The notes beneath the pieces are model-generated. The model was given only the letters and a program-made list of their open reading frames with translations. It ran no database searches and was not told the DNA's origin. 64,000 nucleotides of DNA from Styela clava. Its lineage: Eukaryota. Shown here piece after piece: positions 57 through 63,067 of this stretch (its first letter is position 1; the number at the start of each line of letters is the position of its first letter). The stretch lies in contig NC_135254.1 in the NCBI RefSeq assembly GCF_964204865.1, positions 10,230,001 through 10,294,000 of the forward strand, given 5' to 3'. The position numbers were made by a program, and so were the translations under genes.

Positions 57-3000
57 ATGGAAGGATTCAAAGGAAGTATGCATTTTGGAATAATGGTTTT
101 TGCATCAGAAAACGTCACGGCTTTAGATATTTCTGAAAGTGAAACTAGACCAAAAAGTACAAAGCAGATATTAAAAAAATTAGACCAAGTCTACGTAGAA
201 GGTACTTATTATCGATATCATTCTTTTTTGTTGGTGATGATGAATCGATTAGAACTATACAACTTTGTTTGTGAGTTATTTGTAACTAAAATATTCCAAT
301 GCATTGGCAATTTTGACTAGATCTGTTTGACGCGGATTCTGTCCAGTTGCATGAAACTAGTCCAAAAGAGGTATAACAAAACTCTCCAGTATAATAAAAT
401 TTAATATATAAAACTTTCAGCTGCTAGCGAAATCTACAAAAAAAAAACACGATCCGGAACAGCAACCGCTTATGCTTTGGGGCAACTCAAAAAAATGATT
501 GCGTGGATGAATATTCAAGAAGGAAACGATAAAAATAAAAGACATATCTTCCTTTTCACCGACGGTAAAGTAATAAAATTATAGGACATAATGCTAGTAG
601 ATTATTTCTTTGTTTAAGTTTTCATGCGAAAAGATTGAAAAGTTAAGTCGAAGCTTTTCTCGAAGCTCAAAATGAGGCAAGGCAATCGTAAAACATAGAC
701 TGCGTAAATTGACCTTAAAGAAACTCATAAATTATCAGATTAAATCTCAGGGGGCAATATATTTTGTGACTTTTGTCAATTTAAAAAATACTATTTGTGA
801 TTTAACGATGATACTAATTTGAAATAAATGCATGCATGTATATGATAATTTTTGCATCTTTAGGAAAACACACAGAAGGAATTGATCCCATCAAAATAAG
901 AAAACAAATAGAAGCTCAATTCAGACCAAATATTGAAGTATGCAATATTTAGTAATTGTTTCGCTAATTCTAATATAGTTTGCAATATTTCTACAATATT
1001 CAGTGTAACCTTACAGCACTGCATTTATCCTATTGAAAGACTTTTCAGAAAAAAAACTTTTATAGATTAAAATTATTTGAATACAATTGCCTATTACTGC
1101 CACGCATACAACTTAAGGCTTCTTTTAATAAAATAACGTTACGAAATACTAGTACAGTAATACCAGGGTAGTCGATCTTGAAATGAATGTGATCGAGAAT
1201 ACGTTCAATTTTATTTCTCGGCATGTTCAAACTTTCTCCACAATTTTCATTTAATATTCTGATAAATAACAAGTCAAACCGTTAGAAAAATACCCGTTTG
1301 TTTGTTAAGTTTTACAGCATAACAGCTTGTAAGGATTGTCACGAAAGTGACAGTCAAAAAGAGTTGGTTGGACTGGCATCAGATGGAAAAAATGGAAAAA
1401 ACTATATTTATATAGAGGATTTTTATAAACTTTCGACTTACCTTGATGAAGTTACCGACGTAAAATTGGGTAAGAACTAAATTATTGGTATAGCCAGTAA
1501 GGTATACTCGGAAAATGAACTAAAATGAGAAATTTTTCAAAACTCGCAAAGCTATATGGTGTAACCCAAAACAATCAAGTTAATTCAGAAGGTTTTATTG
1601 TAATAAAATTTTGTGCATCAACTCACACAATTATCGCGATGAATTCTGTGATTAAATTTCATTGGTTGATAGGATGAATAAATTTTGTCTGCTTATGTTA
1701 TGAAAATATTTGCTGTCAAATTCTAGTTATCAAGGTTGTACTAAAATGAAATAAAATTGTTCCGAGCAAGTAACCTCTGTTACTATACAACTTATAATCG
1801 ACCACATAAACTTTCATAAATTTACAGACTTTGCAGAATGCGGACAAGCTGGTAATGTTGGAAGCATAAAAGATCAAGCTAGCTTAGGTAGATCAACTGG
1901 CGGAGAGGACGCGGCAGAAAATGCTTGGCCGTGGCAGGCTTTAATTACCAGAAAATCACAAACTCCGGAAAAGGTAAAACACAAAGTTATTTTTACAGGA
2001 AATACTGCAAATTAGATTAAAATATATTAAAAAAAGTTGTAGCAATATTATCACCAGAATTCCCGACATATAATATATATTTCATTAGCTGTACTTTCTT
2101 ACACGTTCAACATGCTATTGGGAATAAAAGAAAACGTTTTCCAAAGTGTGATTGGATGGTAACCTGAAGCATGTTGCGAATAAAAATTGTTAGTAAAATT
2201 GTAATAATCCATATTATATAAGTTTGTATATATTTCACATTTCTCCTTTTGGCATAGTTTTACGTCGCCCACAGTAACACGTGTATGAAAGCTTCAATTG
2301 ATGTCCTGCCTTTTGCAAACTGACAGCAGTCAGATACGAGCCGAGGAAATAAGTTCCTTTCCTTCATTAACATAGCCTTTTTCTTGTTATTTTAAACCTA
2401 CATTTGCTTTGGCGTTCATTCTTCTTTAGTTACGATTTTGATTTAAAGCACTACTTGATTAGGTTGCAATTTAAACCTTGGGCCAAGCGCAGTCGTTCAA
2501 GTATTGGTCTAGCGAATGAGACCTCAAATATGATAGAATTGTGCACTTTTGGATGCAAGCATGAAACTTGGCACACATGTACAGTAGCATCTTCTGATTA
2601 ATTTTGGATATGATACCATTCAAAAAAATACCTCGTTGCCATGGAAACGAGGCACTATCCGTATTGCTATCCAAGGGTAAGAAACATTACTTTAGGAAAG
2701 GATATTTCTAAGATAAGTAAACCGATGTGTATTCAAGAAGTAAGGAATATGATAAAAAGTGCATTTTGACAATTGCCCTTGATAACAAAATACCTGGTTA
2801 CCAAGGAAACGAGTTATCGTTATCGACCAAACACGATTATTAGTCGCACAACCTGAACGCTAACCGGAACACGAATACTACGTCCATGTTGTCCGCCACC
2901 TTGGTGCACATACTCCTGGAGTTCCCCCATCCCTACTGTTTAATGTATATTATAATATATCAACTATATTATAGTTGATCAACATTATATCCCAGCCAAA

Positions 3001-24500: not shown

Positions 24501-27500
24501 GTGTGATACTGAAGGACGATTTACGTGTGAGGACGGCGTTTGTATATCAAGAGCCAGGGTATGCAATGGAGTAAGTGACTGTCGTCGTGGTGAAGATGAA
24601 TCGAATTGTGGTAAATTATTTCACGAAATCAATAGAAATTGATTCAGAATCGTAATAGTGAATCCAGTGTGCTAATTTTAGAATATAATTCTCTTTAAAA
24701 GAACTAATAATTTGCCACAAAAGATCATCCCAGTTTATTAGTGTTACCCAGAAATTTCACTTCAATTAAACACTTTAATCACCTCGTTCACGCGTTTAGT
24801 CCCGTTTCTAGCGCTCTTCAAGTGCGTTGTATTACGTGCAGTCTTTTCTTGTTTGGTTGTGTCAGGAGTATTTTGTTTTTTACGTTCAAGAGTTGTATAA
24901 TATTTGTCCTTACAGGCGCAGCGCTTGATTATTTTACCACCATATTTTATTTTCTAGATATAGTAAGGTCCATCTGCTATAGAAATTACGATTGGTGGTT
25001 TTCAAACGGATATCATTGCAAGAAAGATTGTTCATCGACTTGGAGATGCAAAGGTCTACTGAAACAATGTATATGCGATGATGAGTGTGGATTAAGTTGC
25101 ATCAATCCTAGTAAGATATTCCATTAATTTTCAAAATAAAAAATAATGACTAACAATCATAACTACTATATATATTCAGCAAAAAAAAAGCAAACGATTC
25201 ACTAAAGCTCATAATACTAATCCAAGTTACCAATTTATTAGTGCAAATTGCGCAAAGGAAGAGTCTTTGAAAAACTTCTGTTCTTTAATTCAAGAACACG
25301 ATTCGTGATTGTGGGATGAAAAAGAGTTTTGTAACAAATTTGTGGATGCCTCGTGGGTGCTTGGTATTTAAGGGCATCATCACATTGCGTCAAGTAAAAG
25401 CTATGAATAAAATGTTGAGTAAATATGTTGTTCATAATATGGTTTTTAATGTAGTTATTATTGAGTAGACATGTTCCAAAAAGTCTGCGAATGCCGTTTG
25501 ATATAGGCGTAGGAGAAACGATAATGTCATATGATTTTCCATCAGTTATTATTGTATTGTATTGCTATATTTGTGACGCAAGTAGCATCATCATTTGTTG
25601 TGATGAAGTATGCCACATCTGACTAGAAATTTGTAGTAAATCAACCAATTTAGACATACATTCATCAGAGAATTTGAATATTGAAATATCAGAACAAAAT
25701 TGGGAAAATATAATTACTCCATGAAGCGACAAAGCAATCATGATAGCGTAACAGATAATATAAAAGTAACAAAAAACACATGAATCTTTAAATGAGGCCC
25801 CAGGTTTCCGATTTTTACCCATAAATAGTAGCACATTACAATACGTTATATATCAGTGGCAGCCCGCATCTGCCCTTATTTGGGACCAAAGAGGCCTGCG
25901 AGTATTAAAAATATTGAAAAATGTGAGTTAGTAGTTCCTAAAGTGCACATGTCATACTTTGTTATAGGTTCAATATGTGAAGATGATCCACCCACTGTTG
26001 AGCACGGTGGGTACTGGAACATCAGACGTACAATTTGGAGTGGTGGATTAAAACACTTAGAGATTGTCGATCCAGTCGAACCTCCTTACTACTTGTGGGA
26101 CATGGTAACTTACAAATGTGAACCTGGACGACGTTTAGTTGGTCCGCTACCGAGATGCAGTGGGCATCGACGTTGGACCAATGAACTTCCGGTGTGCGTA
26201 GGTACATATAAAATATACACTATAATGCAGCTATGGCATAATGAAAAGTAAAACGGTTAAAGGTGTTGTCTCTTATTTATTGGAATTTGCACATTTTTGC
26301 GGAAGATTTTTCATCACTCATTTACAACCAGAGGGTAATAATGCATGACTTAACAACATGGACATCTGGCTAACTCGTTCACTTCTCTCCATGGCCGTTC
26401 TTAGAAAAATTTATGCGCCCATTGTCCATTACATTTGTATTATTATTTTTTCACTGTGGCAAGTTTACGAGATTGTCATACAGTGAAACATACATCGTTA
26501 GCCTATATCTTAACCTACGTGTAGTGGTACTCCGAAGTGCATCTGAAATAAATTATGAACAGAGAAAAAACACAGAATTATAATAGATTTCCGAACTATC
26601 GATATTCTTGATTTTTGAGAATAATGAAAATCAAATTTCAACTTATAGTTCGACATCAATCGTACAAAAATTGCAAGAATTAAAAGTAAAAATAAATTAT
26701 TGGAAATCGTACAACTATGTTTTCATTACCTGCGTTTTTCTTTTATCAGATGAGTCATGTCGGGATCCTGTCCCAAGTGTGAACAATTCAATATACTATC
26801 GATATTTGAGACCATCTGAAGGGACAGTGCTGCCAGTTTCAAATAAGTTAATTCCTCTTATCAATGACGTAGTTGAATACAAATGTGAGGAAGGATTATT
26901 GCTCACAGGAGAACCTCCAAAATGTCTTAAAAATAACACGTGGTCAACTCACACTGCACGATGTGCTGGTATGAATTTTAAGTTCATCTGATGTGATATT
27001 TTCCAACACTTGTGTTTAAATCTGGTTATAATAATTTTAACGTATGGATAAGGAAAATTGAAATTTTTATACAAAAATATTCATCTACGTACTGATTTAT
27101 ATTAAAAAATTGTCTATACAAAAGTAAAACCATAAAAAACTGCAGGGTTTGATACCTTTGGACTAATTTGTAGTGTTTTTATTAGTTCAATGTTGAGTTT
27201 CTGCAATGATTAACTTGATGCTCTGTGGAACGTTCTGCGTTCAATCACGTTATATAAATTATTGAACTTTTCCAGTTCCATGCTTTGAGGGAGTTGACCA
27301 TAATTTGATATCAAAATATGGTTTGACATGTGGAAGTAGTTGTCTTGCTACCGCAGATTGTGACTCGGGAATGGAATGCTTTTGCGACGGACCTTGTTCC
27401 CGAGTTTGTGTTGACCCAAGTGAGTAATATTTATATCACTTCTATCAGGGACTTTTTATGGCACTCGGTTTTATGATATTATGTTATTTATCATAAAATG

Positions 27501-30500: not shown

Positions 30501-33500
30501 GTCATTTATGAGACAGGACAAAGAAAATGCTAATAATAAAAGACATTGTTTTATTTTTACCGACGGTAATGCAGTATGTTGAATCAATATTAATTTAATG
30601 ATTTTTTGTATCAGTAAAAATACAGTTGGAAAAATAATCATTAAATAAATTTTCAATGAAAACATACCCATGGTATTTTTGTATTTTGCAGGTAAACATA
30701 CGGAAGGAACTGATCCCGTTGAATTACGAAATAACATAGAATCTGAATTCCAACCGAATATTGAGGTATCATTAAGGTCTACAGCAGTAGTCGGCAAATT
30801 TCATGTACTACTGGGCAAATGTACAAACCGACGGCAGAGAGCGAACCGCAATAATTCCCACTTATAAATAAATGCTGCAATAAACTTCAAGTTATGACGC
30901 AACCGTCACATCCTTTTCTGTGGTATTAGAATTAACAGTAAGCACGTTCTGCAAGTAAACGTCATACAACCGATGTGCTTTTGCTCAAGTTAATTACTAA
31001 AAAACAAACGCCGTTAAACAGCCGTGATTAGGAACACACATACACACAAGTTTTCTTAAATTATATTGAAACCTAATCAGATTTAACAACAAACTACTCA
31101 CTTAAAACCTACTCTTTGTTGGAATTACAATTCAAGAGGTGGTTTGAGTATCTATGTGTTAACATCTGATATGTTCGAAGTGATTTTTCGTTAGATAAAC
31201 GTTTTTCTCTTTCGATTAATAGAAATCCTAGCTTCGAAACGGTGTCTTATTTCGTTTTTTCCAGTTTTACAGCATAACAGCATGTCATGATTGTAATGAT
31301 GTTAACAGTCAAACAGAATTAGTTGGACTCTCGTCAAAAAATGGAGACAACTATATTTATATAAAAGATTACTATCAACTTTCAAGTTATCTTGATAAAG
31401 TCACGGATGTAAAATTGGGTAAAAATTAATTTATTATTTTTCCAGTTAATTTCAGATTAGTCAGTCAGTCAGTTCATTTAAAAAAAAAAATGTTATCAAC
31501 AGGAGGTCCGTACAGTACATGTTTCTGGCACGATTTAAATTTTACAGAGGTTACTAATAAGTTTTTTGGATTTAATTGTAATAGTAGTGCTTTAACATAA
31601 GTTCATTTGACTTTTTTTTTTTAAATATTGGCCAATATTATATTCCGGATGCCGGGGTATCTCTAATTATCTTGCTTTGATATAATTCAGGTAACGCGGC
31701 TAATTATTTGTTTGAAAATTATAATTTCACAGATTTTGCAAAATGTGGCCAAGCTGGCAACGTTAAAAGCATAAAGCAACAAGCTAGTTTAGCAAGATCA
31801 ATAGGCAGTGAACAGGCGGCCGAAAATGCCTGGCCCTGGCAAGCTTTGATTACTAAAAAATTACGAACACAGGAGAAGGTGAGATAAGAATTGTACTGGA
31901 AGATATTGTGCATATGTATTTAATTAGCAATTAACAAACGCCATTGCGTAGTCACCTGTATAAATGTTGAAATAAAGATAACAATAAAACAAGGGGTCGT
32001 GGTTATGCAAAGATAATGAATATCATGATTAATCCATGAATTTCTCTTCTATCAAAAATATGCACGCATGCAAGTTTTAACACGCGCATAAAAGTTGTGA
32101 TTAAGATTTTGCGTTCGGCTAACCAATTCACGTCTGTGATTGGTGTCTCTGAACCTTTGGGTTATCAAGGTTAAGGCTTTAGTTTGAAATTCGCTTGTAA
32201 AATTTAAATTGATATTAATATTCTAACTTTCTGCAAGATCTCTTAATCGGTTGATACTATTTCTTTTTATTTACTTTTATTTATTAAGACATTGCAGAAA
32301 GGAATGTTGGGCGGAGGTTCAATTTTGAATGGAAACTGGATACTAACGGCAGCCCACTTACTTGGTATGCAATCGCATATCCATAATTGGTTGGAGGCTT
32401 ATGTGATATCTGTTGGTAAGATATTCAAACCTGTAACCTAACTCATGTGAATTGTACCTTGTTGCTTAGATCGGAAACCTAAATATTTGAATGTCAGATT
32501 TATCATTTATTTTATTTAATGCTGGTCGCCTACCGCTACTCCTGTATTGTGATTTGTATTGCTAAGGTATTTCACTTTGATGCAAAAATCTCAGAAAAAA
32601 CGAGTAATTTCAGATTATAACATCGAATTAAAATAGCCAATAGAAACTGATTCAAATTGTTTCAGGATTATATTTAAAATATTTTAGTGTACAATTACTT
32701 TTCATTTCTTCTGCCTAAATCTCCTGAAACAACTAGAAAATTGGCTTGTGTTTTTCATTTAATCTTAATGCATTTCATTTTATATATATGCATTTTTTGC
32801 GATGTAGTATATCAGTAGATTATATACATATAGAAATATTATTAAAACTAAACGTGTGGACAAAATGCCGAACAAATTTAATCAATCTATGAATCAATTC
32901 GTCATAGCTACCTAAATAAATGCTAAGTAAACAAGCGGGCAATGCACCGATAGATAATCCTGTCACAATCAATTGTTTAGCATTCAGTCGTTATAATTAT
33001 TCAACACTAAATCCACGTGGTGTAAGTATCACACCAATTCAACATTTAAAATAGATTAGAATAGTAGCCCAAGTAAAATCGATTCTTTCTCAAATAAACC
33101 AACAGCAGCAATGATTTAGCAAAACGAAATGTATTTTTGTTATTGGATTCCAATGTCCAGTAATGAAATTCTCACAATTTCAAAAAATGGCGCTGATTTT
33201 GGTGCAACAGGTTGACACGTGGTAACACGAAAATTCATTTGAAAAGGTTTTCAGCAATAACAACGTCTTCTATACTCGATTTTATATCGATCCAAAAGCG
33301 ATTCTTATCCACGTAAAATATCAAAAAAGATCAGTTAGGTTTAAACTCATTTTTTGTCTATAAACCTATACATAATTATACAATATATATCATTCAGGTA
33401 TATTCAATCGACTGACTGATGGAATGCATAGAATTAAATCTACTATCAAAATGTATGGAATTGCCGAGTACATTCCCCACGAAGGATATGTTGGCGGGGA

Positions 33501-42119: not shown

Positions 42120-42727
42120 TCAGACACAATTCATAACCGACGATACAGAAGTATAGAATCCAGGCTGTTTATTTCCACATCCCCATCCCCAACTGACTAT
42201 TCCAACTTGCATCCAGTGTCTTGAATGCTGAATTCCAAACTGTATTGGATGATTGGTGTATACAGAAATAAATTAGGTGGTCACGAATTGTAAATATAAA
42301 TTATTATGCTGACTTTTGTTGTGAACATGTCGCCAATCGATCTCAATGTTGTAGTGACCAGTGAAGGTTAAATCCAGTAGGAGGCAATGTTTGGTCTGTC
42401 AAGGAAGATATATCTAATCGTATATTTGAGCTTTGCTCTCTTGTTATATATACAAAAACTGAATTGAAAAAAATATATCAATACCCGTAAAAAAGAAAAC
42501 ACTGGAAAATATAAAGTTACTGTCATATTACAGCTTTTTATATAACATAGTGCTTTAATTAATATTGCACAGACCCGTTTCACAAGTGGTCCTCCACTAT
42601 CTCCTTCGCAGGCATCAACGTTTTTGGATTTATCAGCACTTTTAGCGCAAGTCATCCTTATCACTCTTGTCATTTTTCTGGATTAAATAATTGTAATTAC
42701 TAATAATTAATCACGCGGTAGATGCAT
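42120..42727 (-). pseudogene. Orphan serine-protease C-terminal exon pair (relic of a fourth paralogue, or alternative 3' exons of gene C)
   Basis: Exon 42727/42677-42575 encodes MTCAKSADKSKNVDACEGDSGGPLVKR and has a GT donor at the same position as in genes A-C. Exon 42239-42120 follows a CAG acceptor and encodes [39 protein letters not shown]. From the homologous acceptor at 42727 the frame is shifted and hits TAG. No upstream exons were recognised. Confidence 0.75.
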
Positions 42728-47200: not shown

Positions 47201-49195
47201 TTAAAAACACTCGACAAAATAATTCAAAACTTTTTGGCACATCTAAAATTATAAATATATATATATGTTGAAGCCATGTTTAGATAACGGCAATAATAGG
47301 TATCTAATTTATGTGAAAAAGGTTATTAGTACCAGCCTGAAATCAAGCAAAATGGATTATCATGGCAAACGCAAAACACCTCTTATGTTGTATATGCAGC
47401 TGGTGACTTCGTATACAATGACAGAATGAGTCTGGGAATAAATTATCAAGATCAGTAGAACTCCATCATAAAACACTGATTAATTGAAGTTACAATATGT
47501 GTGTTTAATTTATGTTTTTCATACAAACGTCACAATTTCAATCACCCATCAATCAATTTATATTCTTGCTTACTGCTTTGATCACACAGCATAAATCCTC
47601 ACACTGCAACTTTTTTATGATCCGAATATACACATATCTCTTATCAAAATTTACATTTCTTGATAAATCATTACTGTGTCGGGTATCTATAGGAACATTT
47701 ACAACTTACTCTTTTTTATGCTGAACAATCGTAGCACAAAGGGGCTCTCTACTAGACTACATCTACTCATGGGAGCTTTAAAGTGAATTTAAAATCGTAC
47801 TGTCAATGTGCTTTCGAGTGCTGAACCGGTCCTAGGGTCTTCCCACTCAATTGATTGTTTCTCTATTTTGTTTTGTAATCTGCATTCTAACAGTTCTATA
47901 CAACTAACTTGAATATTTTTAAGTCACTCACTTAATCTTGACGCGAGACAGCGCCGTCAGAACACAGAAAAACGCAGGAAGTCGCACGATGATTTTCGAA
48001 GCAATAATAATCTGTCAGCGCCAAGTCAAGCGTGTCGGCGAATTCTACATCGGGAGAAATTTCCGGAGTTACACGGGATTAGTATAACTACTGACTGACC
48101 TATTGGACTACCCTCGCAATACAAACTAAGGTTGATGAAATCGAGTTTTATTTCTTTCATTATCAAAATCAATTCAGCGTGACAAAGCTAAAAAAAATAA
48201 TTAAGGGTCTGCGTAATGAACTCAGTAGTCAATTTGAAACCATTTTTAAAGTCGGGACTTGGTACAATTTGGCCCCACAGTCTCGATGCTCTAAAACTTG
48301 AGGTCGAGAAAAATGAAAAGAGAATGAACGTGTGATGAAAAAAACCAATCGAGATGAATAGTATTGCAACTCTAACTCCTATCCTACGGGTACACATAAA
48401 GGTGACTTGATCATGGGGCATTGCCCCCCCCCCCCCAAAAAAAAATGTTCGAAAATTCCACTCTTAATCCACCAGTTTTGTGGCAATCTTGTCTCGTCAC
48501 GCTTACTGATTGTCATTGTTACGTCAAAAAGACTTGATCGTTCGCTGTTATGAGCAGTTTGGGAAAGACTGTTTCGTTAGCTTTCGGTCAGTTACTCGGT
48601 ATTGATTTGTTCTCGCCGGTTTTATATTCGAAACGCTTGGATTTTGATGACCAAATTACTTCGATGGCTAAATTTAAACAGGCGAAATGCGATAGTTTTT
48701 TTCAGCGAAATAAAGAGTCGCTTTCCTCAAAAACATCAATAAGCGCTACTCAGGCTGTGGATGCACCGGTTACGTCAGTTACGTCTATCACTTCTATTCC
48801 CGAAGATAAACTAATATTCAAAAAAGGGAAAACAAACGACCTTGAATTTATTCTTCAGAAACATACGCAGCTTACCGATGCGGAGAGATACAGGTTTCTA
48901 ACTTGGGATGGTCCGGAAAAACGTGACGATTCTGAATACCGTTAGACAAAGTCGTCGTAAATTTCTCAAAAAAGGGCTTGACGATGACAGATTTTGAAGT
49001 TGGTTAGTTTGCACCCAACTCTCTGATGGGGGTGGATCTTGTATTCACAAAAAGCCAGCTGAGTTGTTGAACCAGTTTGCTTATTGATAAACTGTTGTTG
49101 CTTTGCGCTTGAAGAAGGGGTGTCTTAAACCCAATATAATTTCTAAAATTTTCAAATTTGGCCCCCCCCAAAATTTTGAGCTGGCTACGCCACTG
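44277..49195. mobile_element. Patchwork of degraded hAT-like elements
   Basis: hAT-type ends CAGGGCTGCCA (44277) and CCCCCCCAAAATTTTGAGCTGGCTACGCCACTG (49195), G/C runs at about 45980 and 48425, and short disrupted transposase-like frames (CxxC near 44560; ORF 48550-48945). Boundaries are unresolved. Confidence 0.4.
45031..45645. mobile_element. MITE with CTCC...GGAG termini
   Basis: CTCCTGAAGTATGCGTACCAAGA ... TCTTGGTACACGTATGTCTGGAG, preceded by TA; same TIR family as 61054-61155. Confidence 0.65.
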
Positions 49196-49540: not shown

Positions 49541-52500
49541 TTAATCCGACTTCTTTTTATCATGATCTTCCATTGTGTTCGTAACCCATGACATCAATGA
49601 TGTTACATCTGTGTAGAAGCCGGGATAAAAATAATTTTTTTGATTGATCTTTGTTTGCTGACCACAACCATAACCCCAACTCACAATACCCACTTGTACA
49701 AAACAGCTTTCTTTTGTAAAATCATCTCGAATCTATAACAAAATAGACTTTCAATAGAATATATATAAATTTGCAACTGTTTATATAGTTAAAACAACAA
49801 AATAATGTTGTCCCATATGGCCATGGAAATACGACATATTCCAAAGCCTCTATTTTGTTTGCTAGTCGAGGGCAATTATAAGAATAACTCATATATATAT
49901 AAGTTATATGTTGTTCTCGAGCTGGAACGTAATCATATCCCCCCCATTAAAACTAAGTTCAATAGGTATCCAATCATAGGCCAAGGTAAAAACAAATATA
50001 TTTATAAAAACAAAACAAAAAAAGTTGAATTTGTAGGCTTTAACAAACCGTTTGTGAGACGTAACAATTATTCTTGCATAGATGCTTTCATGCATGTTAC
50101 CTACTCATATTTCTTCTTCAAGAATATCAGCGGTAGCATCTCAATTTAAAACACGTTTGAGTATGTTACTCCAAACATATACCAACCTCTCGCACTATTG
50201 GTCCACCACTGTCTCCTTTGCATGTGTCGATAATTTTCCCTCCGTTTTCTCCGCCCCCAACTGCACAAAACATCTGGTCTGTGAAAATGTGTTTAAATCC
50301 AGATATATTCTTTCGTCGAGTTATTAGTTTGACCGCTCTCGCGCACCTGTAAAACATAACTTCCGTGTTTCACTTTATTCACGCCATGTAGCCTACGTGG
50401 TACTGAGCAATAACTCCGGGGATGCGGGTAGCGGTGTCATCCCATCTGCAATCAGGGTATGAGAAGTTTTTTTTGTATTTGTCTGTTTAGTCGGTACTTT
50501 GCTATTTTTCGTCCTCATTCAGGTTCTCTTGAATAGGGAAGTCATTTTGCAGGCTGTTAATTGATTGCTTATTTTGAACTACAAATCTTCTGCCATTTTT
50601 CTTCCCCTACTTGGGAGGTAAATTTTATTTCTTTGAGGCAAATCAAATATAAGATAGTTCGGTATCTAAACCTTCAAGAAACTAACTACTAGTGTGAGTG
50701 TGATAATGACTCATGGGGTCTTGTGTTATTAAAACGATATCCAGACTCACTCTTCTCTTTTAGTCACATTTAACAATGCTTGTTGTAATTCTCGTGTTGC
50801 TTTCAAACCAAAACCATAGTCCTCGTCTTTCCTGGTTGCATTATATCCGAATCCAGTAGCAACAACTGCTACCACAGAATCAGAGTTTTTTCCCATTAAA
50901 ACGTCATCTGAGTAGAAATCACGTGTGCAATTTATAACCTTATATGGTTAAGGATGACATTCTTACATTTCAGTTTTTACGACGAGTAGTAAATTTGTGA
51001 TGCGATAATCGAAGTTTGTTGAGCGTATATAGCAGTTATAGCAAATATGCAGTATTTTTCAACTCTTATTATTTAATAAGACAATTTCATGTTTCAATTC
51101 CGAACAGGTCTTTCAAAAGCTTGCACTGATAAACAATCAGCTATTATTTTGTGAAACTGGAATTTTGCGGTTCGGCCTTTTATGCGCCGGTTATTTCAAC
51201 CTGGATGAAGCCCAGGTAATATTCAACCTGCGATGGAAAACAATTAGTATCAAAAGTTCTAACCTAAGAATTAGGTTATTTGCTTGTTGTGCTATACGCA
51301 GGTGTTTCAACCTGATTATAGAATTGGTATATGTAATGTTTTGTCTTTCACGTAACGAGGTGAGGGGTTTCTGATCTTCAACCTGGGTACGCCCCTGACA
51401 ACACGGGATTGCTGTTGTGAAAATATTGTATTCTGCGCAACTAGTTCACCAATCAATTTCGAATGTTCAGTACCTCAAGATAAAAGAAGGCGATTTATAT
51501 TGGTCGATTTTGTATTCTTATTTTTGCGAGGCATTTTACTTATATTTTTGAAAAAATACGACTATGGCTTTTGTATCAGTAGGTCAGGCCAGTCCGAAAT
51601 CTTTAGACAAACCCAGTGTTTAGCTAACGTCTAACAGTACCGATGTGATTTGATGCGCTTATGAGCATTTATTTGTACTTTTGATTTTTGAAACATTTGA
51701 ATAATTAGAATTTGTGTAAATAGTATATGCATGCTGCTATTGTATTATGCATTCTATGTTCATATATTAGACAAATCCTCTCATGTTTATTGAATATTGT
51801 GCCGAATAAACAATTGTTCGAACATAAATGAGCCAGGGAAAACATTTACCTAACGTGCATTAATGACACCTGCATAGAAACTTACATTCAATTTTACACT
51901 TTTCTTCGTCTGTTTCCTCTCCTTTTATTAAAACTTTTCCTCTGCTATCTTTCTTCATCAACACTTGGCTGACACAACTATCCGGACTGCATGGCAGACA
52001 GACAGGTCTTATAAAAGGAGTGAATTCAACATATCCTGGTAAGGAGTCTGGCATTAGCATACGTTTCCCATCTTTTGATAAAACAAATTCTCCACCAAGT
52101 TTAATCTGTTGGAAACAGAAAAGAGTTGATTTTTTACGATGCAACTATCGGAAGGAATAAAATATTTATATGCAATAAAGCAATTTTATGTCTCCTTACC
52201 AGTGCAATGTCGTTTTGATAAGATCCAGGTAAATATTTGCCGTTATAATCTGCATACTTATCATGAATGTAAATCTGTTCTGGTTGAAACATTTTCACCG
52301 AAGCTTCCAAAATGTTGTATCTGTTCGGTCTTCTGGTGATGCCTTGATTTCAGTGAATGAAGTTGTAATGAAGTAAAGATATGATTACAGTTTGGATGAA
52401 AATTTTGAAAAGACGATTCAGCTTCGTAAGTAAAACAGACAAGAGAGCGATGCTAAAATACATAGACACAAATCTCGAGGATCATAAAAATAAATAGCAA

Positions 52501-55500
52501 AATCACAGGTGAAATAAAACCAAAGTCATATTTTTTTAGTTACTTCTACTATTGTCTAGTAATGAAGATTGAAATTGATTTGCTCAGTAGCTTGGAATCT
52601 GAAAAAGGCAATTTTTACAACAAAAATACCTATAAAATCAATTTACCGGAACTATCGGAAGGGCCGCATAGTGTTAAAAACGCACATTATTGCAGTAATT
52701 CTAAGGTAACTTACACAGTCTCAAGGATAGCAAAAGAATCTTACTCGCCATATCCAAAAACGCCACTCGAATTTCAGGAGTATTTAAAAAAATCAAATTT
52801 ACCAAGCGAAACCATAATTCCTTGTTCCCAGTTCAATCCACTGTATGCCTCAAACACATGCGCAGCAGATAAAACCCATTTGCTATTAATTAAACTTCCT
52901 CCTCCCATAACCTGGTCAAATGCCTGGGAAAGTAGAAGATAAATATGATTTTCAGTTGAGATATTGAAATATTCAGCTATCAGAGTATATCATATATAAT
53001 TCTATATTGACACAACATTTTTAATATTAGATCAAATCATAAATGTGCTTTGAAGCATCATTTTATTTCCTGCGGTCAATTAAATTAAAATATCAAAGAA
53101 GATAGAATAAGAACTAGAATTCGGTAAAGTTATATTTATGGATTTTTCAAATATATATAAATATATATGAATATCACAGAAACATGTCTAATTTGAATAT
53201 TACCACCAAATTTTCTTCTTTGTCGAAACAATATAAACGGAAAATTGTTGCCTACAAGTCTGACGTCAAGAGGCATGAATTTATTTCCATGTTTCTTCAA
53301 TAATTTTTATATAAACACAATAACAATACATTCAATTAACCAAACCAAACCATTTAACAAAAAACATTTGTACATACATCCAGGAGAATTTTATTGTAAG
53401 ATGTGATGAGTGCCTGCCAAGGCCATGCACGTTCGGCCGCTCTTTCGCCACCGAGTATTCGTCCTCCCGGGGACAGATTTCTCACACTCCCAACATAGCC
53501 TGCTTGTCCACAACTATTGTAATCTGCCGAATATAATAGCGTATTAATTGCATTATTTTTACTCGATTAGCTTATTTAATCACTTGTCATTTCATACAGT
53601 AGATAGGTGTCGCATGTATCAGTGTCTGAAAAGGTAGGCAACAGTAGTAGAAGACTAAAAAGATAGGTATCACAAGTATCAGTGACTAATTATGGCTGTC
53701 CATTTAATTAATAACTGAGCTTTACTGCTGCGTGTTTAGCACTGTCGTGAATTCAATAGATATTTGTTACAAAAAGAATTTTATTTACAGATGAACGAAG
53801 AAACAATACAATACCCTGTCATTGATGTTAAATACGTACCTATGTGCCCGTTTGCATTAAACGAAGTTGTATTTAAACGAAACTGATGACGTTACTAAAT
53901 ACAATGGGATACAAAAACTTTTTATTACATTATAATAGTACGGTATGTAAATATAAGTGTTCCGAAATAATGCTGTTGGATTGCACAATATATTTTAACC
54001 CAGGCGAATTCTGATGTAGAGGGAAAAACGCAAATTTTATAAAAATGCAATATCGAGAAAGCGTGCATGGAATCAGTTATGCATACAACGTTGATGGATA
54101 CCTAAATCAGTGTTATTCAACTGGGAATACTATATACCAAGTCAGATCCCGGGTACACAAAATACAAATGGTATACGATGGTTTACAGGTATGGCATGGG
54201 TCGAATATACTCTATACTACACTCAGTTTTGTGTTTTTGAAACAGACGCAGTTCGCATTTGTGAAAAAATGACGGAGAAATACACAGAAAATGCTTGGCA
54301 AGGTTATTCGCAAATTACTACGTTATATGTCAAATTAGAGCACATAATATCTTTTGGCCATGTATTTGAACATTGAGGTATTTAATGACTTAACCTAGCA
54401 TTTTTTTTCTACTTTATTTTATTAATTAATCTTTGTAATTTGTAGGGTATACGAAGTAAACAAAAATCTCAAGACAGCTGGCTATACCACGTAATAAAAA
54501 GTTGAAGACTGATCTAAATATCTATATTAACCAATTACAACGCAAAAAGTTATCTGAAACTTTTGAAAAACGAAAAATGAAAAGCGATATAATTGCTATA
54601 AGCATATAAAAGCATATAAAGATAAAAACGTGAAAAAGTTTAGTGATACCAAACATCAGATAAAGGCATATTTTAAACCAAGTAAGCATGAAAAACACTG
54701 CATAACATATAAACAAGTTGGAAAGCAGTAAAATTGTATTTTGACATTTTTTTTGCTTTCTTCCGATTGTTTTGTCCAGGTTTCTTACCCGCCGATTTGC
54801 GGCGGTGGCAGTACAGCGAATTCGACATTACAGGACACTTATTTTTTTCTCTTCATAATTCACCTCTGTTAAAGAAAAGTACTAAACAGTTCCTTTTTTC
54901 TGTTGGCTAAGAGTGCGAGCCATTGATACAATTCCATTTCAAATTTTCTAAAAAAACCGTGTAGTTTGTACATTCCTGTGCCACAAAAAGATTTCTGGAT
55001 ATCCACTTACATGGTGTTTACCAAGTTCCATGAATTGTACTGCGTCATGTTTCTTGCATTCCGTTTGCCCTTTAAGAATAAGATTTGCTCTTTCACTGTC
55101 ATTATTCGTTCATGGTGTTTTATTATTCATTTTAATCATTGGTAGCCTGACTTTGGTTTTGAAGAGGAAAAAATTTGCCTTTTCAGATAATGCGAAATAT
55201 CCAAAGATATTTCATTGCAGTAATTTTTTAATTCATCTTGCTTGATCGCGTATTCAGCCTCAGTATTAGAATTTTTCATTCCAATTATCCGTTTTTCTAT
55301 AGAATTTCTCTGAGCAATAATAACACTTTTGACATTCATTAAATAGTTTGACAAATTTTGTTTGAGATGGTCTGAATCCGATGCCTACCTTTTATTCATT
55401 TACTACTGATACCTACCTTTTTAGTCACTGATACCTTTGATATCTACCTTTTTAGTGACTGAATCTACTACTGATACCCACCTTTTTAGGTATTTACTAC

Positions 55501-58500
55501 AGATACCTACTTACCTACTGTTTTAGTCAATGATACATGTGATACCTATCCTTTTAGTCATCTACTACAGATACCTATTTGGCACCCACCAACAAACACC
55601 TATCATTAGCCAAACTTTATAACTTCATTCACATTATTACTAATTTTATTTTTATCATACCTTCTTCAACGTCTGTAATTTGATTAACGTATTTGTGTAA
55701 TTTATAAAAATCTTCAACATAAATAAAATTTTCGTGCTTCGACGCAATTTGTTGGAGCTCCTCCCTGACTTCTGAACTGCTTTCCTGTGCGGAGGATGTG
55801 ATGCTGTAAAACTAGAAAACATCAAAGTAAAACTAAGAAATAGAACAATCCTACTATTGATACACCATTACATACCTCTGGTGGGTTGTAAGCATATTTT
55901 ATTTCTATTATTTTTCTGGCTTTACTTGGACTTCCTCCTGCATTTTTCGCGCCTGGTAAATAAACAATATTCTTAGCTGTAATAATAAGAGAAAATAATA
56001 TGACCTACATCTCTATTTTAAGTTTACTGATATTTCTAAATAGGTATGTGGTTTCTGTTATATAACTTATATTGGTGTAATACTAAATATAGCTTGACGA
56101 TTATCGCATATTTATTTAAACGAATTGTCGAAATAGTTTTTATGAAAAGTTTTTCCGTTTTTAAGTTTGTTTCTTACTATATTCAGAAAAAATATATAAC
56201 AAAAGCAAAATCACTAATTACAGAAAAATGTTTTTGTATCCACAACAATTTTGCAACTCTCTCTTGTAAAACACATGAAATGATACTGTTATCAACAACC
56301 CATAAATAGAACATATGAATGGTGGCTTATGGAATATGGATGCAATATATTGGAAAAACAGAATTCAAACTATCCTGTTGACAAATATAGATGAGACTTC
56401 AGTTTAATTTAAACTCGTGAACGCCCGGTAAAACCATGTTTCCCTTTCCAAAACATTACCGTCTGTTAAAACAAGGCAGTGTCTCTTAATAATCATATCC
56501 TTATCATTTTCGTATGAAAACGCAATCATTTGTTCGTCAAGTAATTCTATCGCCGATTGGATATCTGTTCCCTGCATAATAGTTTTCTTTATATTTTCTA
56601 AAATAAAATACAAACAAAAATGAAATGAAAAATATGTAATCTGAACAAATGAATTAGGTAAATGTTCTCCATAAGTAACAACAATTTGATTTTTTTGTCA
56701 TAAAAATGTTATACTGTTTCGTCCTTTAATCGAACCAGTCAGCAGGAACGGATTTCGAAGAGATGATGGGGATGATAAACAGCTTGTTTGTTAGAAATAT
56801 AGTCTCAAATGATGGAGATGCCAAAGAAGTACAGCAAAAAAAACACTTTTTATTTTTTCTGTTACTTCATCAAATGTCACCCCCGAAATAAATAATATAT
56901 ATCCTTAGTATATCAGTTATTTATCAATGGTTTATTTTTCGAGATGAAAGTATTGCCTAAGAAGAGATAAATCCGTTGAATTATTTTCATTAAACATTCA
57001 ATGAGTTACATTGAATATCTTGTATCAGCCATACATATAGATATTGTACTGTATCTTACCGCGATCTTTTTCTATCTCATTCAGTAGAGTAATCACCTCT
57101 TCGGCAGTCTTTCTTGGTTCATTATTAATATTTAGTTTAATCATTGGTTTCGTTGCAAATACAATAATCCCATAGTTAACTCGACCAGTTGTGTCGTTTT
57201 GGCTTAACTATAGATAGTGGAAACAAAGTTATTGATCACGAAGTAAAATTTGTTTTGCAAAATGTTTTTTTTGTTGTTGTTTTTGAGAAAGACGCTTTTC
57301 TGCTACTAATGAAAAGGTCAAATTTTTATTAAAAAAATATGGAAGTACTTTTGGGAAAATTATTGCTTTTTTAATTGCATCGAAATCCTACATGGAACAA
57401 GATATTTCAAAAATAGTTTAACCATTTCATTTTAATTCATTGGAATACTCTATATGACGCATGAGAACACTTGCTAACACCGCGTACATATGTCTCCGGG
57501 CACCGCTCTCTTTTTTTATAAATATTTTTGATAATTCAGACAAAAATTTAAAGTAGCCCTAAAGTCACTTACCCTTTTAACGAGACTTTTGGCAAAGCCC
57601 ATGGTGTTTCTCAAGGCACCCGGGCCAACACTCAAAGATAAGTCGATAACAAAATACACTTCTATTCTACCTCGAGAATTTAGTTTGATTGTTCTTCCCG
57701 AGCTAGAAAATTTTTCAGTTTGTCTGATGTTTGATGTGCTTTGAGACAATTTATTGATGACATCTGTTGGCAAATCACTGTACTTTGGATCTAAAAATAT
57801 ATTAATCAAAGTAGTATATTTGTGATTACGGAATTGAAATGTATTTTCTTACCTACGCAATCAGGCGCGCCATCACCACTCCATTCTTTAACAAAGAGAC
57901 ATTTTTGCTTTCTTTCTCCGACTAAAACAAGGCCATCCTGGCATGAAAATTCGACTTTTGCTCCAACAACGAAATCATAATCTCCTGCGAATCCTTTCAT
58001 GTAACCACCAATTGGAATGCCGGGATGTGGACAACGTTCCAGGTTTCCTTTGAAATAAATACTGCGTGATCATTTATCTAAAAAAATCTAATATTCAAAA
58101 ATTTAACATACAAGTAGAGTGAAAATGTTGTTTTCTCACATTTCAAGTCAATAAAAGTTCAGGTAGGTATCATACTTATTCATAGCAAACGTAAACCAAA
58201 ATATACGAAAATAAATATGGCGTTTCTAATCAACGTGCCAACAATTTCCATCGATTAGAACACCCGTCCGTTCAAAATTTCAATCGATTTCAATTTTAAC
58301 ATAGTCTGATTGAATATTTCTGAAATATTACATACTATTACCTATGTTATCACACACTGTGTTGACGCCGCTCCATTTTCCATCTCCCATGCATGTTCGG
58401 ATTTCAGAACCCAACAGTCTTTGATCAGATCCACATGCAAACATCAACGTTGCGTTGTAGTAATATGCAGTAGTGTGTTCATAATTAAGGACGCGTCCAC

Positions 58501-61500
58501 CCATCTTTGATATAGCTGGTACTGGATCTTGACATGTTACACCTATAAACATCTTATTTTTAGTCCCTTTACCAAATCTCCTTATACTGAATTGTCTACT
58601 CACAATATCGCAATGTTATTTCTCGATGTTTAAGATGAATTTATCTTGCTGTGTATATGCAGAATTAAGCAAAGCTGGCGACTCCATATCACAGAAAGTG
58701 CTACGAAAAAATTTAATCTTTCATTTTTGACAAAATTACATACACGATGGAAACGAACAAAACTCACGCTTGCATTGTATCAGTTTTCCTCCCCATTTTC
58801 CACTCCCTGTGCACTTTCTAGAAACATCCCCCGCTGCAGTATATGTTCCCTCGTTACAAATATAATGAGCCACGCGTTCAAATCCTTCCCCGGTGTATTC
58901 GATGAATGAGTTTTCAGCAGGTGGTGCATCACCACATTCTATCTCTGTTGAATAGTTTAAAAAAATACCTTAAACAATTGCCTAAAAGTATATTAGTACC
59001 AATTGACAAGACAAAATTTAAAAATATATTTTGTGATATATTTGGATTCACATAGTACCGCCCGCGTGTAACGCGGTCAAATAATAGAAGCATCTATTAA
59101 AAAATATAACTCACTCAAGTCGACGCATGTTCTTCCACAGGGGTCGTCACACTGGCAAGTTTTCCCTGCAGCACAATCTCCATCTGTTATACAATCTAAA
59201 CCGCACGATAACTCGTATTCTTTGATCTTGTCTTCTTCTTTCATAGGACAAGATCCTGTTTAGTATATAATTTAAATTAGTGCGAGTTGATTTGAATTCA
59301 TGTTCAAATACGTTAAATGAATATTTAAATCAAGAAGATGCACGGTGTGACGCATCGTGCTGAGCGTTAGTAATACGCTTGCACAGCCTGGGAAAATTAC
59401 GTGCGGAAAGATTACTAGACTCTTCGTATTGTTCACGTGACCAATGGATTGGCAATTGGGCGAGAGGCCGTGATTCGTCATATGACTAAGCCGTCTTGCC
59501 GGCTTTCCCAACCATGGGATAAATATCGGAAGCTCATAGTAGCAGAAGCGTTGGAGTTCTATTTTACAAAGTTATCCCAACGCTGTCGCATGGTTGTTTT
59601 CGTGTATTATCAATTTCGTCTTATCGGGGGCAAAGCAAAAATAGACAAATAATTAATTTCAAGTCGATTTCAAAAAAATACTGTATTATGGTATAAATTC
59701 AGGTCAGGAAATTAGTACATCAGATACCTAAGCTTGTTCAAAAACTATATCTCAAAAATATGAACCGACAACAAAGTTCAATGTATTTTTGATCAAATCA
59801 AAATAACAATATCAAATAGGAGCTGCAACAATAATAATAACATGTACCTACTTGTGCATAAAATCTCTTTTGTCCACGTTTTATTTTCCCCTCTCGCTCT
59901 TCCGTGACAAAATCTAACATTACTAGGAACCGCGAGATACCCCGGTTCGCAGGTATGATAAGCCCGGACATCGTATTTATATGGTCCTACTGCATCTTCG
60001 AGCTTGTTTGTGTGGCGACTTCGACGCACATACCGGATATGACGTAGATTTGGAATCATTTCAAGTGGAGGACATGTTCTTACTGAATATAAATATTGAA
60101 CACGAATAGGGATCAAGTTAGTGCAAAGGGAAAGAAAATGGACATTTTTTATTTATGTAATCAAACGTATACAAAACAAATAATTCGAATAATTTTGAAT
60201 TTTGCAAAAAAGTAAACAAGTAGAGTGTTTATATTAAATATAGCATACGACTTAATGGCAGGAAAATAGCTTTGCAAAAGACAAAAATTTCCTTCATATT
60301 CAAATAATTTAAATACGTACAAATGGCAACGCAAGACATTCCACATTCATGATCGCAAACACATTTCTTCTTCTCAATTTTGGAGCAATCTTGTCCTTTT
60401 TTACATTTCTTTTTACAATCTTTATTGATTCTGCATTTTTTTCGACATGCTGGTCTTCCAACAAGTGCCGCTTTTTCCAAGTTAGCTTTACATTTCTTCG
60501 GACCTAATTAGAAGTGAATTTAATATATAATAAATAAATGACACTTCGTGTGACGCTTACGATCTGTTGATTCATTTTATTCGGCCAACAAGGCCAAGCG
60601 AAGAAATTTCTAATTTTTAATGTCCTCAGCATACCATTAAGTTCACGAGATTAACCATCATATACATCAAATGAATAACTGAATGACAATAGAAATTGCT
60701 TCAGGCTAGCGATTTTTCAAACCTAAGTTCAAACTATATGCATTATATTAGCCGGATATTATTATTGCAAAAACTCATTAGCTTTCAGTAGTTGAAAACT
60801 TAAAATTAAAACACACAATTATTAGTTGATAATAGTGGTTCAAATTGAATACCCGTAAATCAAAATTATAAAAAATTAAAGTCTCATTTAAAAAAAAAAA
60901 AATGAAACCCAAGCAAAAATAAACTAAGGTGAAATAGTTGGTTTCAATCGGAGAGTTTGCAAGAAGAAAAGAACTCTTGTTTTGTACCAAACTCGGCAAT
61001 CATACGATTAAATATGTTTCCGTAAAGCCATATAAAATACACATTAAGAGGTACTCCTGAGGTATGCGTACCAAGATGTCGCATAACCTGAACCTTAATC
61101 TGGTACACAACCTGAGTTCAGGTTGTGCGCTATCTTGGTGGGCATACTTCAGGAGGTCCCATTAAGGAATAGACATATTGATTCGATTGTGCTAACAGCC
61201 CGATCATAGTTCTGTTTATCTCATGTAGCCTTTTCAACATGATCCACGTTACTTGTGTAACTATTTGATGATATGAATAAAATATTATTACTTTCTGATT
61301 GATGATCGACATGAACAGGCAGTTTTTATATGTTTTAGTATCTTGCTAATACAATACACCATTCGTTGTAAATCTTACATTTTGCAAATTCATAACTTTC
61401 ATCTTCGTCGTGCAGGCAATCACTATAATCGTCACACATGTAATCCCTGCTGATGCAAACTTGACCACTTTCTTTGTGACAATGAAATTTACCAATGGCT

Positions 61501-63067
61501 GAGCAGTTGGTGCCTTGAAACAATGCAACAATAATCGTTAAATTTGCCGAAGGCTGCATAGTTCATTGCAATATATTTGTAGAACGATAATAAATCACAA
61601 AATCAAAACAATTTCTCTGAATATATCTAGAAACTCGCGATTATACGATCAAATTATCCCGAAGACGTGTTTCAGTATCAAAGAGGATTAGAATCATTAG
61701 AGAACTAATGTACAAGAATAATAATATTTCAATATATCTATTTTGTTATTAAATTAAATATTTTTATAATTGCATGACGTTTTGTAGATATTGCTCCAAT
61801 TCTGTGACTATTTGTGATTTTTATTTTCAGGTCATAAATATAACATTTCTTTTTGGTTTTGCTGATAAGTATTGCGACCTAATATAATCAGATAAAATAA
61901 ATGAATAACAACAAATGAATTAGTTAAACAAAAAACGAGAATATCGGTCAGAGACCAAAGACTTATCGATCGAAAGTTAGGGGATACCCTAAAACAGAAA
62001 TTGCGATTTCGATTCGGAAAATTTTGCAAACCAGAACTGGATTGTTTCGATTAGTTTTCAGCCAATATCAAAAAGGTAGGAAACAATAGCCAACTCCCCA
62101 CGTCGTCGTCGAAATAATACTCGATGAAATACTTTTATGAAGAATTCTGCAATCCGAACTGGATTGTTTCGATCTCGCGGCGTGTCTCACTAGCGTGAAA
62201 ACTTGCGCATCGCACACAAACACACATTCAGCGCGTCTCAAAAATCTCTCGCTTTGTAAAAACGTTCTCTCGATTTGCAAAAATCCAGATCTCTTCATCA
62301 CTAATTAATGAATAACTCGCTAATTATACCACATTCATATAATTCATACCACAATTCATCCAAAATCAACAGGCTTCTGATCCGAGATATGATGAATGCA
62401 CATGCAAAATTTGAAGCAGATTTAACCTCGCGTTCGTGAGGTATCGCGTGCATCTAACAGACAGACAAACAAACAAACAGATAAATACCTATCAACATAC
62501 TTACCGATCTTATAATCGTTAAGTAATGATTGAGGTTCTGTTATTGCTGTCCCATGAAGTTATCGTGTTGTCTATTATCAATAATTTCATGTATATTGTT
62601 ATTAATTTTGAATTTCATCATTTTAATTTACGACTAGTTTTGTAGGTTAACATAATATATCACACAATATGTTTACACATAAACTTACATTCAGCAAACC
62701 ATTCAGTTTCATCCTCTCCATTAGCGCAGTCAAATCTTCCGTCGCATTTCAATTCATTCGGAATACAAGCTCCATCCCAGAAGCATTTAAACTCTGAAAA
62801 TTCACTGCAAATCTGACCTGTAGGTAATGGATAATTTCTGACGAATTTTAACTACAAAAAGGTTCAAACTATTAATATTAAAACCAAACTAAAAAACAAT
62901 TTGCTTTAGATAAAAAGACATGCTGTATTTTTAGGAAAAGAGTTGTTTAATTCTGTCCCTAATTCAACAAGTAAAAGTTTATGATATTGTATGAAATTTC
63001 ACTTACCTTGAACATTTTGTTGGATAAAAAGTATAACAACAAGGATAAGATTATATCCTAATATCAT
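49541..63067 (-). CDS. Bf: Complement factor B/C2-like gene C (signal-LDLa-LDLa-WAP-CCP-WAP-CCP-CCP-CCP-vWA-serine protease, about 1107 aa)
   Basis: Twenty-one minus-strand exons join in frame (3324 nt): 63067-63007 (signal [21 protein letters not shown]), 62817-62689 and 61513-61379 (LDLa), 60503-60321 (WAP-like), 60082-59852 (CCP), 59255-59115 (WAP-like), 58944-58768, 58542-58342, 58047-57853 (CCP), 57790-57573 (SSGR-TI, MIDAS DLSLS), 57207-57060, 56597-56460, 55952-55876, 55811-55661 (vWA), 53523-53378 (GGR-ILGG), 52923-52803 (SAAHV), 52342-52200 (NDIAL), 52105-51886, 50907-50751, 50346-50187 ([10 protein letters not shown]), 49732-49541 (TAA). Confidence 0.92.
53598..55580 (-). mobile_element. 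Mutator (MULE)/foldback-like element relic in a gene C intron
   Basis: Arms built of GATACCTAC/TTTTAGTCA-type repeats lie in inverted orientation (53598-53690 versus 55380-55580). An internal broken minus-strand frame has [18 protein letters not shown] and [14 protein letters not shown], resembling MULE transposase motifs. Confidence 0.6.
59340..59527 (+). mobile_element. Degenerate, internally deleted copy of the same SINE family
   Basis: GCTGAGCGTTAGTAATACGCT matches the SINE head. GAGAGGCCGTGATTCGTCATATG..AAGCCGTCTTGCCGGCTTTCC..GGGATAAATAT matches its 3' body. Confidence 0.65.
61054..61155. mobile_element. 102-bp palindromic mini-MITE
   Basis: CTCCTGAGGTATGCGTACCAAGATGTCGCATAACCTGAAC ... 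GTTCAGGTTGTGCGCTATCTTGGTGGGCATACTTCAGGAG, with ~40-bp imperfect arms. Confidence 0.75.
61934..62526. mobile_element. Helentron/DINE-1-like element (family H2), longer copy
   Basis: Shares its start (GACTTATCGATCGAAAGTTAGGGG) and last ~170 bp (CATCCAAAATCAA.AGGCTTCTGATCCGAG...ACAGACAGAC...CAACATACTTACCGATC) with 34574-34874. Confidence 0.65.

Follow-up and report, generated by a model that had tools for sequence, protein, structure and literature searches.

What might a strongly cationic WAP module with ten instead of eight cysteines do in a putative factor B-like protease? The question arises from gene C of Styela clava, located on the minus strand of the window, a stretch of 64,000 nucleotides (contig NC_135254.1, positions 10,230,001 to 10,294,000) to whose numbering all positions below refer. 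About 17 factor B genes have been reported in S. clava (PMC7540406), and factor B transcripts were confirmed in ascidians, without domain detail (PMC5465252). The recruitment and activation of invertebrate factor B are described as unclear (PMC4714745).

The product of gene C, which NCBI files under Styela clava with the name 'complement factor B-like' (P0003, P0005), comprises 1107 aa in the order signal, LDLa, LDLa, WAP, CCP, WAP, three CCP, vWA and serine protease. Read against P0005, the coding part of the signal-peptide exon (63007..63067) is followed on the minus strand by two exons matching Pfam PF00057, LDLa1 (62689..62817, net charge -8) and LDLa2 (61379..61513, net -6), and by the WAP1 exon (60321..60503), which follows LDLa2 and precedes CCP1 nearly without linkers. 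Downstream lie CCP1 (59852..60082, PF00084) with an Arg-rich hairpin, WAP2 (59115..59255), CCP2-CCP4 (approximate limits 57845..58945), the linker and vWA exons (approximate limits 55662..57794) and the serine-protease exons (approximate limits 49544..53524). Pfam recognized four Sushi domains, VWA and Trypsin in the protein, the CCP-vWA-serine protease order of the factor B/C2 family. The vWA domain of P0005 contains a MIDAS-type DxSxS followed by Thr and Asp motifs, so that the MIDAS residues are present. Directly before the vWA domain, Arg517-Thr marks the likely Ba/Bb boundary; this Arg is matched in the paralogs C2 and C3 and in P0010, and not in P0011. The protease domain has Asp in the S1 position and all three catalytic triad motifs (AAH, DIAL and GDSGG), and it is preceded by a trypsinogen-type site, R750-ILGG, which distinguishes gene C from vertebrate factor B, where such an activation site is not known. 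The architecture thus indicates a factor B-like protease with putative orthology and convertase activity; our trees took in Styela and Clavelina proteins only. The NCBI isoforms X1 and X2 of the gene C protein differ by nine residues in the vWA domain (window ~55800), reflecting either an alternative splice site or a difference between models.

The factor B architecture, its Ba/Bb split, the MIDAS and an extra LDLa in ascidians have been described (PMC4714745). Gene C shares with the ascidian proteins (Ciona FB-1 to 3 and Halocynthia FB) both the CCP-vWA-serine protease core and the additional N-terminal LDLa, the Ciona proteins being tabulated with four CCP and about 1000 aa. It differs in its two WAP modules interleaved with CCPs, as the table in PMC4714745 lists none for any species. 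Neither Ciona nor Halocynthia proteins were among the matches of our searches with the gene C protein and the WAP profile. No publication dealing with WAPs in the factor B of tunicates turned up in our literature search, although an earlier description is possible because the primary papers on ascidian factor B were outside its scope.

An earlier note, made from the letters of the window, had pointed to a hyper-cationic WAP with 16 Lys, 3 Arg and 10 Cys at 60503-60321. These positions delimit one complete minus-strand exon of 183 nt (phase 1-1, acceptor AG 60505-60504, donor GT 60320), whose codons begin at 60501 and encode residues 110-169 of P0005. The translation reproduced the 60-residue peptide of that note: together with 6 Asp/Glu, the 16 Lys and 3 Arg give a net charge of +13, and all 10 Cys are in place. 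At the sequence level, the peptide is devoid of F/W/Y, 23% of its residues are hydrophobic, and only 2 of 29 are so in its basic core. The note had also called the next CCP Arg-rich and the second WAP acidic, in line with net charges of +8 for CCP1 (+4 in paralog C2) and -5 for WAP2 at 59255-59115 (+3 in paralog C2). It further named the first WAP of gene B (24957..25118, plus strand, 8 Cys) as an aromatic equivalent; the aromatic stretch is indeed present, with a net charge of +1, but that module belongs to a different paralog clade.

What kind of module is WAP1? In LEV-9 of C. elegans and Hasp of Drosophila, a WAP stands directly ahead of CCP modules (PMC9083331). A profile built from 14 genomic modules matched 37 proteins among 1435 candidates. 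These were proteases from Styela and Clavelina along with WAP+CCP proteins from groups such as insects, barnacles and molluscs, some of which bear the name lev-9-like. WAP1 shows the spacing C-x3-C-x5-C-loop-CxCDxxCGxxC, albeit with a lengthened loop, and a CCP follows directly; this spacing, common to insect, crustacean, mollusc and chordate WAP+CCP proteins, was derived here from the retrieved homologues rather than from a published definition. Moreover, WAP1 is 48% identical to one insect module (E=4e-9). By its spacing and neighbours, WAP1 is a WAP module of the LEV-9/Hasp type. It departs from that type, to which it was likened via relatives and not by alignment with LEV-9 or Hasp themselves, in having 10 Cys and a C4-C5 loop of 17 residues as opposed to 8 Cys and 4-8 residues, in a net charge of +11 between the first and last Cys compared with a median of +2, and in residing in a protease instead of a synaptic scaffold. 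WAP1, with 10 Cys instead of 8, stayed below the Pfam PF00095 cut-off (7.7 bits vs 20.8), whereas WAP2, with 8 Cys, passed it (23 bits). Since WAP2 passes and the homologous insert-free modules have 8 Cys, WAP1 is taken as a derived WAP variant.

Among 53 distinct related modules that could be parsed (one truncated module was left unparsed, and modules without the CG motif, such as the second WAP of gene B, are outside the pattern), ten cysteines occurred in only two, those of gene C and paralog C2. A loop exceeding eight residues was found in three of 29 distinct S. clava cores, obtained from 20 of 34 genome matches. The 10-Cys form was thus seen in two S. clava paralogs among the proteins retrieved, which included no other stolidobranch protein. 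The predicted WAP1 structure has a C-terminal hairpin and the same order of elements as WAP2, but pLDDT was low, at 69 for the module by itself and 50-67 when it was modelled in context. A fold search with this low-confidence model gave no PDB match at E<=0.001, and five weak rows of small toxin knottins (E 3-10, best Z 2.0) were treated as noise; comparison of the WAP1 exon with 50%-identity representatives also gave 0 matches at E<=0.001. Both the annotated protein and the module type are already known.

WAP1 shares its cationic character with elafin, SLPI and crustins, and its profile weakly matched elafin (E=0.01) and SLPI (E=0.15-0.31) over C3-C8. It differs from them in carrying CxC instead of CC, a gap of 3 between cysteines C2 and C3, no Met near Cys2 and no hydrophobic face, and in not being a small free protein. 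In antiprotease WAPs, the primary contact region lies around Cys2, usually with Met (PMC9680087). An elafin-type antiprotease role was rejected, as only three residues separate C2 and C3 of WAP1 and none of them is Met.

The cysteine gaps of WAP1 read 14-3-5-3-5-7, compared with 9-15/3/5/5-6 in the family, which indicates that the C-x3-C-x5 unit occurs twice. The tandem KKC....DC duplication proposed in the earlier note to explain 10 Cys instead of 8 is therefore real, and it is spliced into the transcript. Unit 1 (60418..60447, minus strand; C128-x3-C132-x5) is kept in paralog C3 and matches the WAP1 of Clavelina, and it likely represents the canonical C2-C3 register for this reason. Unit 2 (60388..60417, minus strand; C138-x3-C142-x5) and C148 (60387-60385) form the lengthened C4-C5 loop. 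The two units share 19 of 30 nt (P=0.0017 in a base shuffle and 0.016 in a codon shuffle, both post hoc), and the agreement of unit 2 with unit 1 of a paralog is closer still, at 22 of 30 nt. A pattern made from the units, likewise post hoc, found two matches in the window and 0 in 100 shuffles. The longer WAP1 loop goes back to an old tandem duplication of 30 nt, and the post hoc tests agree with this.

The two cysteines missing from paralog C3 are C142 and C148, one codon reading Gly and the other falling in a 6-nt gap. Their joint absence suggests that they pair with each other, and the predicted C142-C148 disulfide likely staples the lengthened C4-C5 loop. The structural models put unit 1 in the canonical register, but the alignment supplied to them already had that register. 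Furthermore, BLAST aligned unit 2 canonically to another insect module, so that unit 2 fits this register as well and the cysteines may pair otherwise.

We considered whether the insert could be an artefact by comparing four sequencing runs over gene C, one of which, X6, is presumed to be RNA; we rely on its intron-skipping joints. Run X5 yielded a 1882-nt contig identical to the window over 59020-60901. Run X6 showed depth on exons and repeats only, ~107 on the WAP1 exon, with intron-skipping joints on both sides of it, and no indel in the WAP1 exon was found among the 12 entries listed of 13. The same WAP1 is carried by P0007, a database allele with other differences nearby, the two versions of paralog C2 (P0004 and P0008) agree with each other, and the insert is common to paralogs C2 and C3. 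The duplication that the earlier note wished to see checked in reads and cDNA is thus present in the identical X5 contig and spliced in X6. Together with P0007, the paralogs and the divergence of the two units at 11 of 30 nt, these observations rule out an assembly artefact or a private allele, the chance of which we regard as practically nil. Copy-number variation of the unit, which had also been suggested for inspection, was not seen among the stored alleles and paralogs compared. In gene C introns, at window ~61050-61160 and 61930-62520, very high-copy short repeats reach a depth thousands of times that of their flanks in run X1; they are probably MITE-like elements.

A genome search for the WAP subtype of clade C gave three matches (control 0), corresponding to gene C and its paralogs C2 and C3. 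The WAP1 of C2 is 92% identical to that of gene C and has 10 Cys, and that of C3 is 59% identical with 8 Cys; the paralogs themselves are put at 87% identity for C2 and only 59-60% for C3. Paralog C3 retains a homologous 15-residue basic loop without either extra Cys, and also has two LDLa exons. On CCP1-CCP4, the three form one clade (SH-aLRT 97; quick tree, 13 rows, midpoint root), which in the same quick tree adjoins six Clavelina proteins and stands apart from the gene B type. The simplest history compatible with these sequences would be a duplication on the stem of clade C and a later joint loss of both Cys in C3. WAP1 of clade C would then clearly illustrate how internal duplication can add a Cys pair to a disulfide module and how both cysteines can later disappear together.

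All 19 K/R positions of WAP1 remain K/R in C2. The C3 module keeps +10 with different residues, its conservation amounting to 11 of 19 K/R sites vs 17 of 30 other non-Cys sites, so that K/R sites are not better kept. Between C and C2, WAP1 differs by five changes, two of them Lys to Arg and none altering the charge; its pN of 0.035 and pS of 0.084 (5 and 3 changes) resemble those of other exons (0.051 and 0.193). Over the nine exons compared, pS is patchy, being 0.08 in LDLa2 and WAP1 vs 0.37-0.52 in WAP2 and one vWA exon, and gene conversion may explain part of the likeness of C and C2. In run X6, the only contig at window 60428, 60440 and 60450 (L012:5972-6151) carries three C2-type letters at depth 107, and this depth over WAP1 roughly equals that of the gene C and C2 contigs added together in the following exon (46 + 50). 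C and C2 may therefore still be undergoing gene conversion over LDLa2-WAP1, although contigs drop rare variants.

How unusual is the charge of WAP1? Between its first and last Cys, the module is tied with that of C2 for the top of the 53 modules, C3 having +8. Nonetheless, 42 of the 53 are net positive, when the gene C protein was shuffled 2000 times, a 60-residue window of at least +13 arose in 160 cases, and seven of 38 related proteins have an equal window (+13 or more). The charge is therefore a family extreme, yet marginally beyond chance and not extraordinary. Taken together, WAP1 and CCP1 reach +21 in gene C and +17 in C2. In Clavelina, WAP1 modules of the same subtype have +5 to +7 in five of six cases and +1 in the remaining one, which suggests that the insert amplifies an older trait.

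Our best reading of these features, which we favour tentatively and give nearly, if not quite, an even chance, is an exposed polyanion-docking patch on the Ba-like arm. The lengthened loop, stapled by the extra Cys pair, would form together with the basic CCP1 an exposed cationic patch. This patch would dock the enzyme on polyanionic surfaces, such as sulfated glycans or microbial walls, and docking would place the zymogen where complement C3 is activated. By analogy with vertebrate factor B, cleavage at Arg517 would let the patch depart with a Ba-like fragment of ~500 residues, not as a free peptide. The polyanion binding proposed in the earlier note appears plausible in view of the module's top rank in charge, tied with C2, and of the adjoining basic CCP1. 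WAP1 contains Lys clusters and BBXB-type runs, the latter a motif of glycosaminoglycan-binding patches, and lacks aromatics; hence it fits a glycosaminoglycan-binding patch better than a membrane-lytic peptide. A high charge density would help binding at seawater-like salt. Heparin has been reported in haemocytes and test cells of Styela plicata (PMC5487770), and the title of one of its references mentions a sulfated galactoglucan from plasma.

The main rival, possible if on balance doubtful, regards the insert as a tolerated loop expansion of an already basic spacer: slippage in A-rich sequence would have copied a Lys-rich unit, selection would have done no more than preserve an even number of Cys, and gene conversion would keep C and C2 alike. 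The prevalence of positive charge among related modules, the marginal shuffle test, the lack of preferential retention of K/R sites, the absence of both extra Cys from C3 and the patchy pS all speak for it, as does the report that the WAP of LEV-9 is dispensable for receptor clustering, the known function of that protein (PMC9083331). On the other hand, the insert persists in all three paralogs despite the low identity of C3, where the charge is held at +10 by different residues, and the changes between C and C2, including the two from Lys to Arg, leave the charge unaltered.

Alternatively, the basic patch could bind an acidic protein partner instead of a glycan, such as a C3b segment, a lectin or receptor, or its own LDLa pair, the latter amounting to intramolecular masking. 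LDLa modules bind Lys side chains, and the acidic LDLa1 and LDLa2 precede WAP1 in C and C2, while C3 also has two LDLa exons. In addition, vertebrate Ba binds C3b (PMC4714745). However, the acidity of LDLa is largely that of the Ca-binding motif, and the Lys-binding pattern of Trp plus three acids is complete in neither module (Leu/Arg in LDLa1 and Tyr/Tyr in LDLa2); the full-length model leaves the LDLa pair (residues 11-113) at pLDDT under 50. Moreover, in the six Clavelina homologues examined, WAP1 (+1 to +7) lies at the N-terminus of the mature protein or close to it and LDLa is absent, so that masking by LDLa, suggested in the earlier note, is not a design of the family. Its companion idea of masking by an acidic WAP2 fails as well, because WAP2, at -5 in gene C, is +3 in the 87%-identical C2. 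We consider a protein partner unlikely overall. The same note envisaged a membrane-active module, similar to an antimicrobial peptide, that is released or exposed on activation; such a hidden peptide would kill microbes in the manner of crustins or elafin. WAP1 is cationic, Cys-rich and WAP-related and sits in an immune protease, and antimicrobial WAP proteins as well as antimicrobial fragments of larger proteins are known (PMC9680087). The same source nevertheless ties such activity to cationic and hydrophobic residues, the latter being scarce in the WAP1 core and including no aromatics, and the module is disulfide-locked in a 1107-aa zymogen, almost linker-free between LDLa2 and CCP1. WAP1 is thus probably not an antibiotic peptide, and we rate this reading as very unlikely.

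If an N-terminal WAP sets surface specificity, the WAP1 exon would be a small testable handle on factor B recruitment, for which the genome offers natural controls: the 10-Cys modules of C and C2, the C3 module, which has the insert but 8 Cys, and relatives free of the insert. A neutral insert, by contrast, would amount to an annotation footnote. A broader proposal, bold and rather improbable as a whole, is that the factor B-like proteases of tunicates recognise surfaces through modules of their own. In the expanded Styela family, a WAP of LEV-9 type would have become cationic and stapled in clade C but aromatic in clade B. Each paralog would then dock on a surface of its own and, with its trypsinogen-type site, start complement there with no need for a pattern-recognition lectin, properdin or factor D as separate components. 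Two disulfide registers may also be open to the doubled Cys unit.

The proteins of genes A and B (P0021 and P0022; LDLa-WAP-CCP-CCP-WAP-3CCP, 1065-1086 aa) resemble the listing of Halocynthia FB with 5 CCP, LDL_A and 1084 aa (PMC4714745), and by this analogy WAP modules may have gone unnoticed in the ascidian factor B proteins published so far. Their protease domains (window 1827-1973 and 31732-31878, plus strand) begin with R-ST/SI-G and not R-I/V-LGG, so that the cluster may hold two activation types, that of the gene A/B clade and the trypsinogen type of clade C. P0020 is a model with two protease domains and with WAP exons at G000:C5:10369111 (L006), which match one near C5:10361912 (L033). 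Its second protease domain groups with clade C and has Asn at the catalytic Ser position, and the clade-C WAP1 is absent; P0020 reflects either two genes merged into one model or a paralog that is dead. Between genes B and C, at window 42371-42682 (minus strand), lies an isolated serine-protease exon with GDSGG, which is close in sequence to the first protease domain of P0020 and is probably a pseudogene fragment. Downstream of gene C, a 135-codon open frame at window 48538-48942 (plus strand) has by eye the look of a transposase fragment. In Clavelina, the single chain of P0010 contains the vWA-protease module twice, and in the second copy Gly replaces the catalytic Ser.
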